Notes: generated from the sequence alone by a model not told the origin. Shown: positions 17 through 54,951, counted from the first letter of the stretch. The stretch is 64,000 nucleotides of DNA from a virus (IMGVR_UViG_3300036975_000017:4499-68498), one strand, 5' to 3'. Numbers and translations: made by a program.

Positions 17-1867
17 ATGTCGGCGCGCGCGCCATCTGATTTAGGATATTCTGACGACGGCTTTGAGTTGCCGCCGCTAAACGAGATTGTTCATAAGATT
101 GACATTGATTTAAGTTCAATAGATGCAGGTACAGATAAAAACGGGAACCAGCGCATGATGATTGCGCCGTCGGGGTTACAAGGATGGAACAAAATCCGAA
201 AAGCGACAACCCCAGACAAAATCGCACGCGCGGTAGAAATTATAAAAAACAGTGACGAGCAATGGATTGTATGGTGCTGGTACAATCACGAGCAAGACGA
301 AATCGAAAAAGCGCTTGGCGATGAATGTGTTTCAGTGATGGGTAAGCACTCGCCAGAAGAAAAACGCGACGCTTTTTTGCGCTTCATCAACGGCGATGCG
401 CGCGTTTTGGTGACAAAAGTAAAAATCGCCGGTCACGGAATGAACTTTCAACACTCACATAACATGATGTTCGTGGGGTTGAACTTTTCATACGAACAAT
501 ACTATCAGGCGGTGCGCCGTCAATATCGATATGGACAAAAAAAATCCGTTAATGTTCATATTGTTTTATCAAGCGTCGAAACGGAAATTCTACTACGCAT
601 AAAAGAGAAAGGCGAAAAATCAAACGAAATGCTCGCGCGTTTGATAGGGCATGTTCAAAATAGGCAAAAAGAGGAGTTAGGAACGATGATGACGGCAAAA
701 GACAGTCAGGCGATTGAGCCGTTTATGTCCGAGGGAGATGGGTGGCGGGTTGGATTTGGTGATAATGTTCCGTGGCTGATGCAACAGCCAGATGACAGCA
801 TAGACCTTTTTGTTACGTCGCCGCCGTTTGCAGAAAGCCTGTTCGTATATAATGACACTGAGCTTGATATGTCGAATGCGCGGGATACCTCTGAGTTTCT
901 TGAACATTTTCGCTTCGCCGTAAGAGAAATGTACCGGACGCTAAAGCCGGGGCGATGCGCAGCCATTCATTGTATGGATATTCCGGCCATGCAGGTACGT
1001 GATGGACGGATCGGCCTCAAGGATTTTAGCGGCGATCTAATCCGACTGTTTGAACAAGAAGGTTTTTCGTTTCAGGCGCGGATTGCAATAGATAAAAACC
1101 AGCAAGCACAAAGCATCCGAACACGAACAAGGGCGCTTTCAATGAGTAATGGTCTCGAAAAAGACCGTGCCTATATTCGCCCTGCTTTGCCAGACTATAT
1201 CTTAAAGTTCAGCAAGCCCGGTCAAAACGAACGTCCAATTGCAAACACAGAGGTGTCGCGCGAACTGTGGATTGATTGGGCTGCACCTACGTGGGCCAAT
1301 CCAGGAGATATGTGCTCCGACGCCGGACAGTATCCAACCTGGTACGGTATCGCAGAAGGCGATACCATAAATAGTGTGAGGGTAGCGGAAAAGTATGGCA
1401 TCACCGATGAAGCGCGAAAAAGACTATGGAAAGATGCGCGTGCATCAGAGGATCGACGCCATGTTTGCCCGTTACAGGTTGGCACGATCTTACGGTGCAT
1501 TGTTATGTGGTCACTTCCTGGCGAAGTGGTATGTGATCCGTTTAGTGGTATTGGGTCAACGGGCGTTGTCGCCGTGACAGAAAACCGTCGCTATCTAGGA
1601 TTTGAACTAAAGCCAGAATATCACACTGTTAGTTTGCAAAATCTCGAAATGGCGGCATCAAACAAACACAAAGTTGATTTGTTTAGCATGGATGTTGTTT
1701 CAGAAAAACAAAGCGCGCAAGGCGGCGCAGGTTGGCTAAATAACCCCGGTGAGCTTCAATATTTCAATGATATGAAAGCGCGTTTAGGTATCAATGGTGA
1801 AATTAACCCGGAAGACTACCGCACGCTCGCAGTGGCAGTTAATGCACTAAAGGCACTAGCACAATGA
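17..1867 (+). CDS. Helicase C-terminal domain fused to N4/N6 DNA methyltransferase (may begin upstream of the window)
   Basis: HELICc-like segment (VLVTKVKIAGHGMNFQ, QAVRRQYRYGQ), followed by catalytic TSPPF and later SAM-binding DPFSGIGSTG (beta-class motif order). Confidence 0.85.
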   Translation: MSARAPSDLGYSDDGFELPPLNEIVHKIDIDLSSIDAGTDKNGNQRMMIAPSGLQGWNKIRKATTPDKIARAVEIIKNSDEQWIVWCWYNHEQDEIEKALGDECVSVMGKHSPEEKRDAFLRFINGDARVLVTKVKIAGHGMNFQHSHNMMFVGLNFSYEQYYQAVRRQYRYGQKKSVNVHIVLSSVETEILLRIKEKGEKSNEMLARLIGHVQNRQKEELGTMMTAKDSQAIEPFMSEGDGWRVGFGDNVPWLMQQPDDSIDLFVTSPPFAESLFVYNDTELDMSNARDTSEFLEHFRFAVREMYRTLKPGRCAAIHCMDIPAMQVRDGRIGLKDFSGDLIRLFEQEGFSFQARIAIDKNQQAQSIRTRTRALSMSNGLEKDRAYIRPALPDYILKFSKPGQNERPIANTEVSRELWIDWAAPTWANPGDMCSDAGQYPTWYGIAEGDTINSVRVAEKYGITDEARKRLWKDARASEDRRHVCPLQVGTILRCIVMWSLPGEVVCDPFSGIGSTGVVAVTENRRYLGFELKPEYHTVSLQNLEMAASNKHKVDLFSMDVVSEKQSAQGGAGWLNNPGELQYFNDMKARLGINGEINPEDYRTLAVAVNALKALAQ

Positions 1868-2681: not shown

Positions 2682-3058
2682 AAATGCAAGAGAATCAAAT
2701 GGGCAAGATAGTTTACTTGAAACACGAAGACGGGCGTATGTGTGAACGTTCAGAGGCGAGCGCGCAGGCTGTGATTGATCTTGGCTTTACTGAAATCACG
2801 AAGCGGGAGTACGAAGCAGAAACAGAGAAGCTAAAACACAATGCTGGTATGACGGTAGGGCAATTGATTAAGGCACTTAAAAAATACCCCAAAAAATATC
2901 GCGTGATTACACAGGGCGAGCACGGAGACCCGACACCGCTTGATTGCGCAGAAGAAACGCTTTATCGGCCCGAAGAGGTTTGGTGTGGTGATATTGTTTA
3001 CGAAGAAGACGCCGACGGGGATGAGGAAAAAGTTATCATGCTATGGGGGATTAACTAA
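2678..3058 (+). CDS. Hypothetical protein
   Basis: ATGA-coupled start (MKMQENQ); acidic. Confidence 0.6.
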   Translation: MKMQENQMGKIVYLKHEDGRMCERSEASAQAVIDLGFTEITKREYEAETEKLKHNAGMTVGQLIKALKKYPKKYRVITQGEHGDPTPLDCAEETLYRPEEVWCGDIVYEEDADGDEEKVIMLWGIN

Positions 3059-3705
3059 TGATCTATCTTAAATATCTCAAGACGTTACTTAGGCATAAGT
3101 GGTTTGTTTTCGTCGAGGCGTGCAAGCTGGGCATTCCGTTGCTTGGGGTGCTACATGACCTATCCAAGTTTCTACCGGACGAATTCATACCGTATGCGCG
3201 GTATTTTAACGGTGAATATCCAGACCAAGAAAAAGCCGACTTAATATGGCGACATAGGTACGTGCGTATAACGTTAACGAAGGAAAAGGTTGAACGCGAC
3301 TTTAATCTCGCGTGGCTTAAGCATCAGCGGCGGAATAAACACCACTGGCAGTGGTGGTACTTGATGAACGATGAGCCGGGGGGGCGCTGGACATGGAATA
3401 CCCATTATGGGCACGAGACACATGATCTTTTAGATTACATAGCTATCGACGAAGAAGAAATACTTTGGGCGATAACCAACGAGGACGACATTCCTCACTT
3501 TCGCGCAAAGATCGCCGCACTAATGAACAACGAAGCGCTCCCTATGCCTGACCGCTACCGCCGCGAGATGCTAGCCGACTGGCGCGGCGCGGGGAAGGCT
3601 TATGGCAATGAAAATACATTAGAGTGGTATTATGATACATGTCTGGGGCGTGTATTGCACCCTGATACGCAGGCATGGGTAGAGGAGCAATTAAATGCAG
3701 ATTAA
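3058..3705 (+). CDS. HD-domain-like protein (DUF5662-like)
   Basis: HKWFV...HDLSKF.PDEF...AWLKHQRRNKHHWQWW...EMLADW motifs. Confidence 0.6.
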   Translation: MIYLKYLKTLLRHKWFVFVEACKLGIPLLGVLHDLSKFLPDEFIPYARYFNGEYPDQEKADLIWRHRYVRITLTKEKVERDFNLAWLKHQRRNKHHWQWWYLMNDEPGGRWTWNTHYGHETHDLLDYIAIDEEEILWAITNEDDIPHFRAKIAALMNNEALPMPDRYRREMLADWRGAGKAYGNENTLEWYYDTCLGRVLHPDTQAWVEEQLNAD

Positions 3706-4351
3706 CGTCTTAGATAAAGGCTTCGTTGAACTCCAAGATATGATGGGCGACGACCGCGCCATCGTTAACGCGGCGCGGGTGTCCTACTTGAGCGACAGCA
3801 AAGGCGATGAACGCGATAAGAAGCTACTGCGCTATCTCTACACGCACGACCACGGCACTCCCTTCGAGATGGCGGTATTCAAGTTTCGTGTCAAAGCGCC
3901 GGAGATCGTGTTTCGGCAGTGGGTGCGCCACCGAATAGGCAGCTTCAATGTGCAGTCGCGGCGCTACACGGCGGTGGAGGAAAACGACTTTCACGCGCCG
4001 GTTGCGTGGCGTTTGCAGAGCGAAGTGAATAGGCAGGGGAGTGATGGTATACTTGGCGTTGTCGATAGTTCCATTTTAACCGGAAGACTTTTATACATTT
4101 ACGATGAATGCTGGCAGCGCTATGAAGAAGCGCTAGCACTAGGTGTTGCCCGCGAACAGGCGCGGTTGTTTCTGCCCGGTTTCGCCGTATATTCAACCTT
4201 CGTGTGGACCGTGAACGCGCGTTCGCTGATGAACTTCTTGCGGTTACGGCTGGGGGAAGATGCGCAGTGGGAGATTCAAGAGTACGCCCGCGCGGTGTGG
4301 ACGATCTTCAAGGAACGATTGCCCTGGACGGCGGAAATTTTTAAGGAGTGA
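3695..4351 (+). CDS. thyX: FAD-dependent thymidylate synthase
   Basis: AARVSY, HGTPFE, RHRIGSFNVQSRRY (ThyX RHRx7S motif), NARSLMNFLRLR, AQWEI. Confidence 0.95.
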   Translation: MQINVLDKGFVELQDMMGDDRAIVNAARVSYLSDSKGDERDKKLLRYLYTHDHGTPFEMAVFKFRVKAPEIVFRQWVRHRIGSFNVQSRRYTAVEENDFHAPVAWRLQSEVNRQGSDGILGVVDSSILTGRLLYIYDECWQRYEEALALGVAREQARLFLPGFAVYSTFVWTVNARSLMNFLRLRLGEDAQWEIQEYARAVWTIFKERLPWTAEIFKE

Positions 4352-41495: not shown

Positions 41496-42080
41496 ATGGA
41501 TCAGGGTCTCGCCTCCGAATTCATAGCGTTGGTCGAGCGCCACCTTTCAACGGAAGGCGAGCGTCACGCGATTTTACAGAAGTGTTGTACAGGGTTATTG
41601 CCGCGACTAGACCTTACCCAACCCGCGCATGTATTCGCAGCGAACGCCTGGGCGCTGCTAAATGCTTACGGTGAGCTAAAGCCGGGGAAACCGGCAGTGG
41701 TTGCGTTTTTAGAAGAACTGCGTAACAATGTTGGCGTAGATCAAATTAGGATTATCGATGATTTAATTTTGGCAATTACCGACACGCATATGGCAACAAT
41801 CGCACCACCACCAACTACCGATGATTCTGTCGAGGTCTGGAAGCTCAAAACGCTTTATGATCTCGGTAAAGGCTTTGCTTCACTTACCGAGCGTGTATCA
41901 CTTGCGTGTGATGCAGTTGAAAAAATAGACACATTAACCGAGGCGGTTGATCGTATTGACGAACAAACAAGAATAAATCGGCGTGGTATGATATTCAATC
42001 GTGTCTTTTTTTTTACGATTATAACGGCTGATGTCCTTGTTTTAATTTTAGTCTTGGCATCCACGGGGATTCTAGCATGA
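41496..42080 (+). CDS. EAD-like helical domain plus coiled coil plus C-terminal TM helix
   Basis: N-terminal ~85 aa aligns with 48949-49266; TM VFFFTIITADVLVLILVLA. Confidence 0.55.
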   Translation: MDQGLASEFIALVERHLSTEGERHAILQKCCTGLLPRLDLTQPAHVFAANAWALLNAYGELKPGKPAVVAFLEELRNNVGVDQIRIIDDLILAITDTHMATIAPPPTTDDSVEVWKLKTLYDLGKGFASLTERVSLACDAVEKIDTLTEAVDRIDEQTRINRRGMIFNRVFFFTIITADVLVLILVLASTGILA

Positions 42081-42203: not shown

Positions 42204-42626
42204 ATGAAAAACTTGCTTTTGTTCGTGGTCGTTCTGGCGCTGCTTGGTGGCGCTCAAACTGTGGTAGCTCAGGAAGATACCGCCGTCAGTATCGAAGGCG
42301 TTCTGTTGCCAGAGTGGGCTAATCAACTTGCCTTTGGGACCGTCGCGCTCTCCTCGTTTGCATGGGGGGCGGTCGAGATCATCAAGTGGATTCTAAAAAT
42401 CATCGGCGTTTACAAGGACGGGTGGGGGCGCTACATCGTTTTCGTCGTGGTGGCTGCGCTTGTCGTGTTGGCGCTAGGGGCTGAAATGCTTGATGCTCAG
42501 GCGCTAGTAGATGAAAAAGTTGAATGGGTTTACCAGCTAATGCAATTCTTCCTGGCGTTAATTGGCGCGCCGATTGTGCATCAAACTGTGAAGAAAAGCG
42601 GTTTGTTGCCATCGAGCGAAGAATAG
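42204..42626 (+). CDS. Holin-like multi-pass membrane protein
   Basis: Signal-like N-terminus, about three TM helices, end of the late operon. Confidence 0.5.
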   Translation: MKNLLLFVVVLALLGGAQTVVAQEDTAVSIEGVLLPEWANQLAFGTVALSSFAWGAVEIIKWILKIIGVYKDGWGRYIVFVVVAALVVLALGAEMLDAQALVDEKVEWVYQLMQFFLALIGAPIVHQTVKKSGLLPSSEE

Positions 42627-45727: not shown

Positions 45728-46717
45728 TCATTTCCACACCCTTTCCCGGCGCGCATACTTCGCCAGTCCCCGCGCGTTTGCTGTCACCGGGTCGTCAAGC
45801 AGGGTAACACCGCGATAACCCATCGCCTGTACCGTGTTCTTAACCAATCGTGCGCCACCGCCTACCAGCAGCGTCACCGCTGCGGTGTTTTCGCCATTGG
45901 GCCAAACGCGACCAATCTCAGCGGCGACCTGTGAGAGCCATTCATTGCGCGCGCCATCCACTAGCGCAATAATATCATTGCCGGCGGTCGTGAAAGACGC
46001 TTTCTTTTCGAGTAGTTCATTAGCTACCGCTAGCGACACGGCTTCACCATACTCGCCGTAGATTGCATCTTTCAGTGCCTTAGCTGCCCACGAGAAGCCG
46101 AGGGGCGCACCGCCCGATAGCGCCGGTACATGCTTTGCGTCGTGCATGACCGTGAGGTCAAGTGTATTGCTCCCCACATCGACCACGGCGAAATTGAATT
46201 CTTCTTCTTGGCGACTGAGACGCCAAGTTCCATTTTCGTCAAGCGCATACTCATAGAACGCGCCGGCGGGTTGGGCGCGGGCGAGAACTTTTTGTACATT
46301 GACGCCATAAGATTTGTCATCAACGGTAAAGACGTGTTGCCCCTGTAGCCAAGCGCGCAGCTTGCGCGCGGTTGTTGCCGCATCGCCGGACATCAAAACG
46401 CCAACCGGAAGCCCGGCGACGATACGTAGATCATGCGATCCGGCGGGCAGTAGTTGCGCCAACGCTGCATAGGTCAACGCGCGGGTTTCCCAGGCATCGC
46501 CAAAGATGTCTCGGTCGGTGCGCATGTCCGCACCGCGCTTGCCCACGTAGACGGTTGCACCATTGAACCGTACAACTGTCTCGGTTTCTTTCTTTACGCC
46601 GTGCATTCGCACTTGCGGCGCTTGCGTGGCAAGGGAGCGAACACACGCCGTTACCGCGTCGGGGGTGAGCGCTGCCTTAAATCTATGGTTGGCGATGTCT
46701 ATTGACAATGATTGCAT
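45728..46717 (-). CDS. parM: ParM/StbA-like actin-fold ATPase
   Basis: SIDIANHRFK (phosphate 1), IVAGLPV, AQPAGA, VVDVGSNTLD (phosphate 2), LLVGGGA, DPVTANARG; start MQSLS has an AGGAG SD. Confidence 0.85.
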   Translation of the reverse strand: MQSLSIDIANHRFKAALTPDAVTACVRSLATQAPQVRMHGVKKETETVVRFNGATVYVGKRGADMRTDRDIFGDAWETRALTYAALAQLLPAGSHDLRIVAGLPVGVLMSGDAATTARKLRAWLQGQHVFTVDDKSYGVNVQKVLARAQPAGAFYEYALDENGTWRLSRQEEEFNFAVVDVGSNTLDLTVMHDAKHVPALSGGAPLGFSWAAKALKDAIYGEYGEAVSLAVANELLEKKASFTTAGNDIIALVDGARNEWLSQVAAEIGRVWPNGENTAAVTLLVGGGARLVKNTVQAMGYRGVTLLDDPVTANARGLAKYARRERVWK

Positions 46718-46727
46718 TCGTTTTCTC

Positions 46728-47054
46728 CTAATCCCACGGCATCGCTTCATCAAGCGACGACGCGATAGCTTCCGTTTCGATGGCTTCCCGCACCTCACCC
46801 GGCGCGACTTGTAGTTGATAACGCGATAGTACCGCCTCGACAATGCGTTCTATAGCATCGAGATCGATTGCGGTCAACGCGCCCCTTTGTGTTTGCGTCT
46901 GACCATTTAGTCCTGCGCGCAGCAGCCCCCGAACAATCTCAGCTTTATTCACAGTACGCGGATCACGTTCGCCAAGCTCAGCAAAAAAATTGCACAGGTC
47001 AGCGTCACGCTTTGGGTCTAATGGTGTGTTCGGTACTCGTGTAATTTCGATCAT
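46728..47054 (-). CDS. ParR-like ribbon-helix-helix adaptor
   Basis: LDPKRDADL...NKAEIVRGLLR; directly upstream of the ParM-like gene. Confidence 0.6.
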   Translation of the reverse strand: MIEITRVPNTPLDPKRDADLCNFFAELGERDPRTVNKAEIVRGLLRAGLNGQTQTQRGALTAIDLDAIERIVEAVLSRYQLQVAPGEVREAIETEAIASSLDEAMPWD

Positions 47055-47100: not shown

Positions 47101-47133
47101 AAAAAACGCGACGCTCCACATTAGAGCGCCGCG
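47101..47133 (-). terminator. Intrinsic terminator
   Basis: CGCGGCGCTC-loop-GAGCGTCGCG followed by T6. Confidence 0.7.
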
Positions 47134-47325
47134 CCAGTTCATTTTTTAACCCCTGTCGATCCCCCGCCGAAGCGGAGGCAGATTGCAGCGCACCATTTGA
47201 ACTACCTAACCTCGAAGTTCAGCGCTGCGTATTTTAGTTTCGATGCGCACCTCCTATGTTAACCCGCGCCCCAAACGCCCGCTGTGGCGATTTATAGGAA
47301 CACGGGTGTGTAGCCCTGCGCGAGC

Positions 47326-48181: not shown

Positions 48182-48869
48182 TTCTCCTTTACTTGATTTT
48201 GAAAATCTCGCCACCGCCTTAATCAAGCCCCGGTAGGCTAAAAAACGGCGGCGGGTAGGTGGCCGGGGCGGGAGTTGCACCCGCTCGCGGTATTCTCCGC
48301 TCCCATCGACGTACTCCGTCAGCCGGATAAGGCGCGTAAGGTGCGCCAGACCTTCACGTAAGAGCACAACAAGGAGAAAACTAATAAACAGTAAACTTGT
48401 CTGGCCTCATTCGTTTCTCGGTCGGTGGCACACGTTCATACCCTTCACAAGGGATCATCGCCTTTATGCTGCCGGGGTAAGCTTGAGCAGCAATGATAGA
48501 ACCAACAATCATAACGCGACGACCGTCAATCGTAGTGTTTATAACACGATTTACGATTGCATTGCCGACCTTATTGCCGACAAAGCGCGGGTGAACATAT
48601 TCGATTCCGTATTTATCGGTGTGCCAATGATCTTCCTAAACAACCGCGTTGATTACTTCATCCGGTTCAACTTCGACCGGCGCTTCCCACGTTTGATCCC
48701 AAAAACGGATCGAGTGCGGCGTAGCGTTAAAAACAGTTAAGCCGTTCGGTAGAGTTTTCATCGTTCATCATCCTTATAAAATAGGTTTAAGATAATCCCC
48801 GCGCCGGTCGTACAATGTGTTCCACAAAGCGCAAAAAACTAAAGTGGTTAAAAACGGCGCGGGGATGAT

Positions 48870-48941
48870 AGCCGCCGGCGCGAGTCGAACGCGCGTCTGC
48901 CGGGCACGGACCGGCTGCTCTGCCGATTGAGCTACGGCGGC
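48870..48941 (-). tRNA. tRNA-Thr(CGT)-like gene with atypical anticodon loop, no encoded CCA
   Basis: Perfect cloverleaf: GCCGCCG/CGGCGGC acceptor, GCTC D-stem, GCCGG anticodon stem with loop TCCGTGC, T-arm GCGCG-TTCGACT-CGCGC. Confidence 0.75.
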
Positions 48942-48948
48942 GGTGGGA

Positions 48949-49266
48949 TTACTCTCCGCGTTCAATCGGTGCAATCGTGGCCTTTTTCAAAAAGTCGGTG
49001 ATATTGTTCCAGATATTATCGCCGACGCGCCGGTTTAAAGACGCTAGCAACGCGACAAATGCCGGCTCTTCATTGTACTCGTGTTCAAGTAGCATGCGCG
49101 ATACATTTTCAACAAACGGGAGCGCCGCACCGCTGTAATCGATGCTGTCAAGGATACGAGAACACCCAAAGAAAGCGCTGTAGAAAAGAGCACGCCGCCC
49201 ACTAGAGCTACCACAATGCGGTATCAAGAATTGTTTCATTCCATCGATATATTCGCTTTCTTTCAT
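48949..49266 (-). CDS. Stand-alone EAD-like helical protein
   Basis: RRALF...IDYSGAA..FV...PAFVALL..L..RVG; paralog of the 41496 N-terminus. Confidence 0.55.
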   Translation of the reverse strand: MKESEYIDGMKQFLIPHCGSSSGRRALFYSAFFGCSRILDSIDYSGAALPFVENVSRMLLEHEYNEEPAFVALLASLNRRVGDNIWNNITDFLKKATIAPIERGE

Positions 49267-49670
49267 TGTTCAACTTCCTCTTGCATCGCCTTCGCAACTT
49301 TATTCGCTAGCGATTTACCCCATCCATTAAGCACTGAAAACATATTGACAGCAAAGGTTGTTTGTTGCCCTTCGTAGTAAATGCTATAGAGGATGTTATG
49401 TTCGCCAATGATGTCCCGGAGCTTGGCGGACCGTTCAGCAGCATTTACCGGAAACGTTCGTTTTGCCAGATCGGTAAAGGTGCGCTGCCGAGCGCCAAAC
49501 CATTTGCCAATTTCTGTCATTTCTTGCCGCGCTGCCTGACGCTCATCTTCTGGTGCGCGCCAATCGCGTTCCACTTTTTTTGCAAGCTCAGCGCGTCGTG
49601 ATTTTTCACTGCACACTTCATCGTTGAAATAGTTCATTTTTATCTCCTTATTTTTGCCTTGATTGCTCAA
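49263..49670 (-). CDS. Hypothetical protein
   Basis: Likely start MNYFND with AAGGAG SD. Confidence 0.55.
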   Translation of the reverse strand: MSNQGKNKEIKMNYFNDEVCSEKSRRAELAKKVERDWRAPEDERQAARQEMTEIGKWFGARQRTFTDLAKRTFPVNAAERSAKLRDIIGEHNILYSIYYEGQQTTFAVNMFSVLNGWGKSLANKVAKAMQEEVEQ

Positions 49671-51485: not shown

Positions 51486-51755
51486 TCATTCTCCTATCTC
51501 TTTCAATAGCGCGCTAAGCCGTTCGCGCGTGTCGGGGTAGTACGATTCGCAATCAATGATAAATTGCATCACACTTGCTAGTTGACTGGATGGATCAAAT
51601 ATGCAGATATAGTTCGTATACTCCGTGATACCTATTACCTGCATCACGACAGATGAAGATAGTTTTGCCATCTTAAGCCGTTGCGCTAGATTGATTAATT
51701 CTCTATCAAGATAATCCATGTCATTTCTCCCTATTGTGTCGTGTGCGATATTCAT
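51486..51755 (-). CDS. Small helical hypothetical protein
   Basis: Likely start MDYLDR with GGAG SD. Confidence 0.5.
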   Translation of the reverse strand: MNIAHDTIGRNDMDYLDRELINLAQRLKMAKLSSSVVMQVIGITEYTNYICIFDPSSQLASVMQFIIDCESYYPDTRERLSALLKEIGE

Positions 51756-52415: not shown

Positions 52416-52483
52416 TTAGCCTAGCTCATCAGTGCGGGGCGGCTAGTTCCCACAGACGCCCGGTTGGACGTTTCGCTACCAGG
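52416..52483 (-). ncRNA. Type II hammerhead ribozyme
   Basis: TAGC-GAAA-stem III (ACGTCC/GGGCGT)-GTC cleavage triplet-stem I (TGTGGG/CCCGCA)-CTGATGA-GCTA; loop I TAGCC pairs with the 3' tail GGCTA. Confidence 0.9.
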
Positions 52484-53450: not shown

Positions 53451-53488
53451 ATTATACTACGCAATAAAACGTTTGTCAAGTGTTTTAC
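53451..53488 (-). promoter_or_regulatory. Leftward promoter PL1 (duplicate of PL2)
   Basis: TTGACA-17 bp-TATAAT. Confidence 0.85.
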
Positions 53489-53506
53489 CAGCTAATCCTA
53501 AAAGTC

Positions 53507-53535
53507 TTGACAAATGTTTTACATAATGATAGAAT
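53507..53535 (+). promoter_or_regulatory. Rightward promoter PR
   Basis: TTGACA-17 bp-TAGAAT, TG-extended. Confidence 0.85.
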
Positions 53536-54234: not shown

Positions 54235-54402
54235 AGCTTGTACTCATATGGATGGCGCAACGCGGATGGGCCTGCACGTATTGTAGCGCTCAAGGGGATG
54301 GTACGGTCCCGCGTTGCCCCAACTGCGGGCGCGCCGTCAACACCTGGTAATTGCACACGCGCCGGGCGTTTTGTCCGGCGCACTTTTCATAAAGGAGAAA
54401 AA

Positions 54403-54951
54403 ATGACATTTGGACCTATCCCAGATTACGAAATTGAGCGTCTGGCACGCAGCGAGCCACCGCTTATCACGCCGTTCAACCCGGATGCGCTTAATCCGTT
54501 CGGCGTTGACATCACGCTTGGTAACAAACTCCGCCGCTTATCACCGTCTTGGAACCGACCGCTTGATGTATTCAACCCGCCACCATGCGAAGCGTGGGAA
54601 GATCATGAATTGAAAGACGGTGAACATGTACTTGTACAGTTCGGCGAGTTATGGCTCGCGCAAACGAGAGAATTCTTTTGCCTGCCGAATAACATTCAAT
54701 GCCTGATGCTCAACCGCTCGAAGTACGCACGCTGCGGCGCAACGCCAAACGCCGGGCTTGCGCCTGGAGATGCGGGGTGGAGAGGCTTCTATGTACTCGA
54801 ATTGCTCAGTCACGCACGGCAGGGCGTTCTATACACTGTTGGCGAGCGTGTGGCACAGGCGATGTTTTTGCGCGGTGCAACATGCCGAAAGTCATATGAT
54901 GACACACACACCTATCAGAATCAAACCCAAATCATCGGACCGAGGGTCTAA
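54403..54951 (+). CDS. dcd: dCTP deaminase
   Basis: NPFGVDITLG, AQTREFF.LP, RSKYARCG, DAGWRG.YVLEL, GERVAQ, YQNQ. Confidence 0.85.
   Translation: MTFGPIPDYEIERLARSEPPLITPFNPDALNPFGVDITLGNKLRRLSPSWNRPLDVFNPPPCEAWEDHELKDGEHVLVQFGELWLAQTREFFCLPNNIQCLMLNRSKYARCGATPNAGLAPGDAGWRGFYVLELLSHARQGVLYTVGERVAQAMFLRGATCRKSYDDTHTYQNQTQIIGPRV

Follow-up and report, generated by a model that had tools for sequence, protein, structure and literature searches.

A gene in the leftward operon of an uncultured, siphovirus-like phage almost certainly encodes EAD8 as a complete domain standing by itself, unaccompanied by any effector, NTPase or membrane anchor. EAD8 is a ~95-residue, non-enzymatic, all-alpha adaptor domain of bacterial conflict systems, and EADs in general are predicted bacterial counterparts of the Death, CARD and PYD adaptors, coupling sensors to death effectors like-with-like. 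The gene is real, conserved and under purifying selection in the phage, which provides indirect evidence that the docking surface of a bare EAD8 matters during infection. Tentatively, we read its product as an interfering adaptor, a decoy that would be directed against EAD8-coupled systems of the host. A second EAD8 domain, predicted to be membrane-bound, is encoded at the end of the tail operon of the same phage.

The early gene product as a stand-alone EAD8 domain

The window analyzed here, a stretch of 64,000 nucleotides, corresponds to bases 4499-68498 of an IMG/VR virus record of 68.5 kb with a CheckV completeness of 79%. An initial annotation, made from the sequence alone, had placed in it a small stand-alone EAD-like protein, encoded early and paralogous to a late, membrane-bound copy. 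The open reading frame was confirmed on the minus strand at exactly the coordinates proposed, and the segments quoted from it are present in the sequence. This gene and the other features discussed below are listed in Table 1.

Table 1. Positions of the features discussed, counted from the first base of the window.
Feature	Position	Strand	Description
Late membrane EAD8 gene	41496..42080	+	194 aa; EAD8 residues 1-98 (nt 41496-41789)
Small membrane protein	42204..42626	+	140 aa; signal-like N-terminus and hydrophobic helices; after the late EAD8 gene
Terminator-like hairpin, probably ending the leftward unit	47105..47135	-	14-bp stem with 8 GC pairs, then a T run
tRNA-Thr(CGU) gene	48870..48941	-	8 nt downstream of the early EAD8 gene, same unit; ARAGORN; Rfam tRNA, 58.3 bits
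Early stand-alone EAD8 gene	48949..49266	-	105 aa, ATG start; domain residues 4-98 (nt 48973-49257)
Coupled upstream neighbor	49263..49637	-	124 aa, all-helical; true start ATG at 49637, AAGGAG 6 nt before
Promoter-like site heading the leftward unit	53451..53479	-	TTGACA-17-TATAAT; 12/12 matches to the sigma-70 consensus

In a Pfam scan, the early protein matched EAD8 (PF19961) alone, with an E-value of 1e-4 and a score of 23.4 bits; its orthologue in a related phage, described below, matched the same family with an E-value of 2e-5 (25.7 bits). Both proteins fall narrowly under the curated cut-off of 27 bits, with nearly the whole of the 96-position model covered. Because the early protein lies below this cut-off, we ran a reciprocal test, in which a profile of the two early phage proteins was searched against 1.84 billion representative proteins (E<=1e-3). 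This search returned 49 hits, including 48 other proteins, and 46 of those 48 are Pfam EAD8 proteins. When 50 sequences from the reciprocal search were scanned with Pfam, 48 were assigned to EAD8, the best with an E-value of 4.3e-24. The domains that accompany EAD8 among these relatives are TIR_2 (9), AAA_16/NACHT/NB-ARC/nSTAND1, caspase, EAD9, EAD2, iSTAND and TPR, as would be expected of an EAD8 adaptor. These results bear out the proposal of a stand-alone EAD-family domain and place it in EAD8.

Additional profile comparisons point the same way. Scored with a local profile built from 47 bacterial EAD8 domains, the early protein gave 84 bits and the late one 57 bits, both as full-domain matches. 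An hhalign comparison of the two early orthologues with the 47 bacterial domains yielded a probability of 99.8% (P 1e-29), a value to be read with the caveat that the domains were picked by the same query and are not independent of it. In an alignment of 50 domains, the signature positions LxP(H), R(R)A(L), (I/L)D..(G)xAxxF and PAxVxLLxxLxxxVG are kept in both phage copies; the nearly invariant columns of EAD8 are L14, P16, R24, A31, G46, F51, L74 and G82. Given that the nearest bacterial EAD8 is only ~30-32% identical to the early protein, the gene was not copied recently from a host adaptor among those sampled. No match to a catalytic family was found for the early protein in Pfam, PHROG or PADLOC.

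The early protein thus shares with known EAD8s a profile family that is recovered in both search directions, its length, six helices, and the signatures LxP, RRAL, IDYSGxAxxF and PAxVxLLxxLxxxVG. Whereas known EAD8s are bacterial and are typically fused to or encoded beside STAND NTPases or effectors (TIR, trypsin, caspase), this one stands alone, in a phage, and is only ~30% identical to any of them. Another small ORF of the window, at 51486-51755, had been named as a further candidate EAD. That suggestion was not borne out: the ORF has no EAD8 similarity, scoring -1.1 bits against the local EAD8 profile, and no match in Pfam, PHROG or PADLOC.

We also modeled the early protein with AlphaFold2, using the 50-sequence alignment. 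The model is confident (pLDDT 95.3, pTM 0.86) and contains six helices, at residues 3-17, 21-31, 36-40, 48-60, 69-79 and 83-98. A Foldseek search of the PDB with it gave nothing significant (E above 1), the weak top matches being CARD, DD and PYD domains. Using VIA-align, the best matches were the PYD of NLRP2 (Z 7.1; 88 aa, rmsd 3.2) and that of NLRP7 (Z 6.6; 89 aa, rmsd 3.1), with cPOP1 at Z 6.0, the vFLIP MC159 at Z 5.8 and a bacterial death-like domain at Z 5.5 (79 aa, rmsd 2.9). Approximately 38 of the top 50 VIA-align matches have a Death fold (PYD, CARD, DD or DED; Z 4.5-7.1). Every Z is below 8, a range in which matches between helical bundles can mirror a common arrangement, and for this reason we call the modeled fold Death-like only and claim no superfamily membership. 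The ESM Atlas model of the early protein superposes with a TM-score of 0.84 onto a cluster of EAD8-TIR proteins that is commonest in Chloroflexota. No significant viral structural match was found in BFVD.

Operon, neighbor and conservation of the early gene

The phage is known from a single sequencing run, a wetland metagenome that is probably its source sample; no RNA run holding it is listed. Megablast detected no DNA-level relatives among deposited phages, and a scan of 185,579 species genomes with the capsid protein detected no relative and hence no prophage relative. In tblastn searches of phages and plasmids with the capsid protein, all matches were at <=40% identity, and their hosts were spread over many phyla. 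One moderately related phage was found, as a 65-kb Logan contig (65,021 bases), and it supplied the orthologues used here.

The plus strand of the window, from position 1 to ~42.7 kb, encodes a helicase/methyltransferase, the large terminase, portal, protease, major capsid protein, tape measure and tail genes. The minus strand, from ~53.4 down to 42.8 kb, encodes small ORFs, RecT and a ParM-like partition protein. A second rightward block, encoding a dCTP deaminase, an HNH protein and a replication O-like protein, comes next. The partition protein (45728-46843, minus strand) is a ParM/actin-like protein of PHROG 691 (E 1.6e-35) and is 42% identical to its counterpart in the related phage. No integrase was seen among the ORFs scanned, which together with the ParM-like protein suggests a phage-plasmid lifestyle. 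Two plus-strand regions, 3058-4351 and 54238-54951, encode DUF5662, ThyX (Thy1) and dCTP deaminase-like proteins, and the head region contains several glycosyltransferases and one epimerase. These assignments suggest functions in nucleotide or DNA modification and in virion glycosylation.

The early EAD8 gene and its upstream neighbor have RecT on one side and a tRNA gene on the other. The same two genes come third and fourth past the divergent region in the related phage. In the window, the early gene and RecT both lie between the promoter-like site at 53451-53479 and the strong terminator-like hairpin at 47105-47135. Since the leftward unit begins at a perfect sigma-70 consensus promoter, early expression of the 105-aa protein is plausible and, judging from this arrangement, probable. 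The assignment of the gene to an early operon in the initial annotation therefore stands as regards the leftward unit, its promoter and the presence of RecT within it, and as a prediction from sequence regarding the timing. The promoter-like site is one half of a divergent pair at 53451-53535 that separates the leftward from the rightward operons; the minus-strand promoter matches the consensus at 12/12 positions and the plus-strand promoter at 11/12, with an extended -10 TG. The pair suggests a host with canonical sigma-70 recognition.

The tRNA was the sole match when the whole window was scanned with Rfam at the gathering threshold; no hammerhead ribozyme was matched at 52416-52483. An ORF at 48774-48974 was rejected as spurious because it overlaps the tRNA-Thr(CGU) gene. 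The anticodon loop of this tRNA, TCCGTGC, has C at position 33 and G at position 37, and every stem pairs. tRNAs usually have U33 and a modified A37.

Comparison with the related phage provides evidence of selection. The early orthologues share 69% amino-acid identity in a gap-free alignment, with a pN of 0.24 and a pS of 0.85, the synonymous sites being saturated; on these grounds we conclude that the gene is under purifying selection. In the regions read, the two phages share few genes, and the early EAD8 gene is among the best conserved of them: EAD8 is 69% identical, the neighbor 58% and the replication protein 56%, as against 42% for the tail fiber, 42% for ParM and 38% for a 436-aa gene. 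It is hardly credible, then, that the early gene is a decaying, functionless fragment of a bacterial conflict gene. Two bacterial stand-alone EAD8 ORFs that lie beside transposases may indeed be such remnants, but in the phage the domain is intact, the AlphaFold2 model is confident, pN is far below pS at 69% identity, and the coupling to the neighbor is conserved.

This coupling is translational. The stop codon of the upstream gene (TGA) and the ATG of the early gene share bases (ATGA), and a purine-rich ribosome-binding site, GAGGAAG, precedes that ATG. The two are separate genes in both phages, with the coupling conserved, and the orthologue of the neighbor (125 residues, 58% identical) occupies the same position. 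From these comparisons, the conserved unit is the early gene with its coupled upstream neighbor, rather than an early/late pair.

The neighbor itself is probably related to EAD8 in part. Its residues 65-108 (nt 49314-49445) resemble EAD8 helices 2-4, with ILYSIYYEGQQTTFAVNMFSVL corresponding to the EAD8 consensus VLxQIDYSGxAxxFTxxLVxxL. Pfam EAD8 matches it with an E-value of 0.12 (13.8 bits in the profile search of the record), and the local EAD8 profile gives 17 bits for the neighbor and 12 bits for its orthologue. An hhalign comparison with the 47 EAD8 domains returned a probability of 64% (P 6.4e-5), and BLASTP matches of the neighbor to many EAD8 proteins share one consistent register. 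An hhalign comparison of the neighbor with the two early orthologues was not significant. We consider residues 65-108 to be a probable partial, diverged EAD8-like segment. The AlphaFold2 models of the neighbor are inconsistent, the best having a pLDDT of 82.7 and the other four 60-67. Assignment of the neighbor to a CARD or CENP-N fold was rejected: the matches (Z ~5) occur amid many unrelated helical matches and are at noise level. No family was assigned to it, nothing was found for it in the ESM Atlas, and a word index of 5.8 billion proteins gave no homologue beyond the single orthologue.

The conserved gene pair raises a different possibility for function, in which the EAD8 fold has been reused outside EAD networks, for example as a heterodimer with the neighbor that binds another host or phage target, related to replication, recombination or tRNA. 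The coupling of the two genes, their location between RecT and the tRNA gene, and the versatility of small six-helix bundles as binding modules are all compatible with such reuse. We nevertheless consider it somewhat unlikely, as every EAD8 signature position is kept in the early protein and all its detectable relatives are conflict-system proteins.

The late membrane-bound EAD8 protein

The late protein consists, in order, of the EAD8 domain, a Pro/Thr linker, a helical region and a predicted C-terminal transmembrane helix at ~168-190 (nt 41997-42065); the hydrophobic window 170-188 has a Kyte-Doolittle mean of 2.77. It matches nearly the whole Pfam EAD8 model, above the cut-off of 27 bits (E 4.4e-11, 43.8 bits), and scored 45.3 bits in the profile search of the record. 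This combination of domain and helix agrees with the earlier description of the late copy as membrane-bound, which we keep as a prediction. The product of the gene that follows it is holin-like by shape only and matched no Pfam, PHROG or PADLOC family. The label 'lysis cassette' for the late gene is unverified because no endolysin was recognized near it among the ORFs scanned with Pfam and PHROG.

The nearest relative of the late protein is bacterial. The two are 37-41% identical, with 37% identity over 143 aa to this protein, P0014 (locus L005, 7490-11580, on a contig of GCA_964457835.1), a 252-aa protein in which EAD8 is followed by a long helical tail. The P0014 gene overlaps the start of the TIR-NACHT-FGE-sulfatase gene directly downstream, whose product begins with TIR and has no EAD8. 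For the late protein, the word index gave no homologue outside the phage itself. Bacterial EAD8 is usually N-terminal on long proteins, but there are also short forms in which the domain is followed by a helical tail or a membrane helix (P0014, P0004, P0030, P0042, P0048), so the architecture of the late phage protein is not unique. These short bacterial proteins share with it the order of EAD8, linker, and helical region or transmembrane helix. The late phage gene differs in its surroundings: at the tail operon's end, it adjoins the gene for a small membrane protein, whereas P0014 is encoded next to a STAND NTPase.

We next compared the two phage copies with each other. The by-eye alignment in the initial annotation was reproduced exactly by MAFFT on 50 EAD8 domains, which pairs RRALF with RHAIL, IDYSGAA..FV with LDLTQPA..FA, and PAFVALLASLNRRVG with PAVVAFLEELRNNVG. 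Pairwise similarity is low: BLASTP of the early against the late protein found nothing (E 9.6), a profile of the two early orthologues did not detect the late protein, and the two copies are 20.8% identical over 101 aligned positions. HMM-HMM comparison had been proposed as a check on this relationship. Directly, hhalign of the early orthologues with the late protein gave a P of 0.0018 (28% identity over 78 columns), which is too weak by itself; both copies do match EAD8 profiles. Homology between early and late is secure, on these comparisons, only through the EAD8 family.

Several observations bear on whether the copies form a specific pair. When 49 EAD8 domains are ranked by similarity to the early copy, the late one comes last (49th); in the ranking for the late copy, the early one is 45th. 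A maximum-likelihood tree groups the two early orthologues in one clade (support 99) and places the late copy with bacterial P0014. Constraining the tree to a phage-only clade lowers the likelihood by 9.2 lnL, with a p-AU of 0.235, so such a clade is neither rejected nor favored. In the related phage, tblastn found no match to the late protein or its three neighbors after the tail-fiber homologue, and three small ORFs past the tail fiber are without EAD8. Positions 17144-64386 of its 65,021 bases (47 kb) contain no EAD8 except in the 105-aa gene; the first 17 kb, which hold head genes, lie outside this range. When all six frames of the window and of these 47 kb were scanned, only the early gene, the late gene and the early gene's neighbor matched. 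The paralogous pair of the initial annotation is thus upheld to the extent that both proteins are EAD8, though they are not close paralogues. At 21% identity, with each copy closer to bacterial EAD8s and the late copy absent from the 47 kb read of the related phage, the evidence weighs, on balance, against a specific early/late pairing.

The same evidence applies to a model of wiring within the phage, in which the early EAD8, perhaps with its neighbor, would dock onto the late membrane EAD8 and cap or time lysis control or phage exclusion. The record contains exactly two full EAD8 domains, which in bacteria is the signature of a coupled pair. Furthermore, the late protein would be tail-anchored with its EAD8 on the side of a basic RINRRG segment, and hence probably cytoplasmic, and a small holin-like membrane protein follows its gene. 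Cognate EADs are, however, usually each other's closest relatives, whereas here the identity is 21%, with ranks of 49th and 45th among 49. Moreover, the related phage keeps the early gene pair with no other EAD8 in 47 of 65 kb, the tail end included, and no endolysin was recognized near the late gene. We judge this wiring unlikely. A complex prediction for the neighbor and for late residues 1-110, with the early EAD8 as partner, gave a score of 0.02, which is evidence neither way.

Proposed role, precedents and occurrence elsewhere

In bacteria, EAD8 is found on sensor hubs (STAND NTPases with NACHT or nSTAND1, often with FGE or lectin sensors) and also on separately encoded effectors (TIR, caspase, trypsin), and docking between the two is predicted to occur via EAD8-EAD8 contacts. 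Homotypic coupling of this type, with effectors recruited to a core sensor or switch, is the predicted EAD principle, and within a genome, cognate EADs tend to resemble each other more than any other EAD (PMC7159879, PMC8195603). In the mechanism that we tentatively prefer, the early EAD8-only protein would occupy EAD8 surfaces on a host hub or effector. Effector recruitment or higher-order assembly would then be blocked, as by an adaptor-only dominant-negative inhibitor, and the coupled 124-aa helical neighbor would probably act together with the early EAD8.

The content of the phage record is relevant to the direction of any such effect. No STAND, NTPase or effector partner was found in it and PADLOC gave no match, EAD8 being present on the early protein, the late protein and perhaps the neighbor. 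Because the record contains neither an NTPase nor an effector, the phage carries adaptors and not a system. This bears on the idea of a pro-defense or competition module, in which the adaptor would recruit EAD8-tagged death effectors of the host upon superinfection and so protect the niche of the phage or phage-plasmid. Mobile elements often bear defense genes, a ParM-like partition gene lies in the same region, and under the EAD principle additional EAD proteins can extend a system. A bare adaptor senses nothing alone, though, and with no sensor, NTPase or effector domain in the phage and no PADLOC matches, we find this module doubtful. It is more improbable still that the phage proteins carry out a two-step takeover, the early coupled pair capping EAD8 sites against assembly of STAND/TIR/caspase-type suicide immunity and the late membrane EAD8, beside a holin-like protein, recruiting the same effectors to the membrane to aid killing or lysis; we regard this combination as very unlikely.

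Interference by a free EAD8 would have a close parallel in a phage CARD-only protein, pCARD of Acinetobacter phage 133, which weakens the CARD-dependent gasdermin defense of Lysobacter (10.1101/2023.05.28.542683). Like the early protein, pCARD is a Death-fold-type adaptor domain encoded alone by a phage, of the kind that host defense uses for homotypic recruitment. It belongs to a CARD-like family and has another target, and its inhibition has been shown, whereas the early EAD8 is known from sequence and model. The poxvirus vFLIP MC159 and the cellular PYD-only protein cPOP1 are likewise small, effector-less Death-fold modules that block homotypic assembly, and both are structural neighbors of the early model. 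Their likeness to the early protein is at the level of fold only (Z <8, 8-16% identity), and they operate in another domain of life and in other pathways.

The initial annotation knew of no description of such a decoy in phages. In the full-text literature, EADs are described only in bacterial systems, and no paper was found on phage-encoded EADs; to that extent the statement is upheld. As a statement about adaptor decoys it is too broad, given that a phage CARD-only inhibitor of CARD-dependent gasdermin defense has been published. Adaptor-only viral proteins and EAD8 itself were thus already known. A phage whose early operon encodes EAD8 by itself, and which has another EAD8 tethered to the membrane, appears to be undescribed.

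Should the early protein bind and switch off its host counterpart, viral adaptor mimicry, as represented by vFLIP, PYD-only proteins and pCARD, would then cover a second adaptor family, one that is purely prokaryotic. It would also imply genuine anti-phage immunity by EAD8-coupled systems, among them the DGR-diversified STAND sensors found in multicellular bacteria. The early protein provides a small, natural and easily expressed probe of the EAD principle.

Finally, we surveyed phages for further examples, confining the survey of solo EADs that had been proposed to EAD8. Neither phage protein, early or late, nor either of two bacterial EAD8 proteins had a tblastn match in 50,697 phage records, and the late protein had none in plasmids. 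Pattern scans of IMG/VR, which have limited sensitivity, detected no other phage EAD8 and returned one contig with a bacterial-type EAD8-TIR-NACHT-FGE protein, which is not solo. The survey accordingly added no solo EAD8 from either source, and phage EAD8 looks rare in these collections. Solo EAD8 is not specific to phages, since stand-alone EAD8-sized proteins occur in bacteria; the two that we examined adjoin transposases, and the Atlas has clusters of 76-115 residues.

On the contig recovered in the pattern scans (IMGVR_UViG_3300029624_000205; locus L015, 8001-16213), the 1151-aa EAD8-TIR-NACHT-FGE protein is encoded together with a reverse transcriptase, another NACHT-FGE protein and a GT4-conflict glycosyltransferase. 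Though filed as viral, the contig may be misfiled or prophage-carried. By its gene content, the locus looks like a bacterial-type DGR-diversified STAND sensor locus (compare the DGR-diversified sensor loci in 10.1101/2023.09.22.558884).
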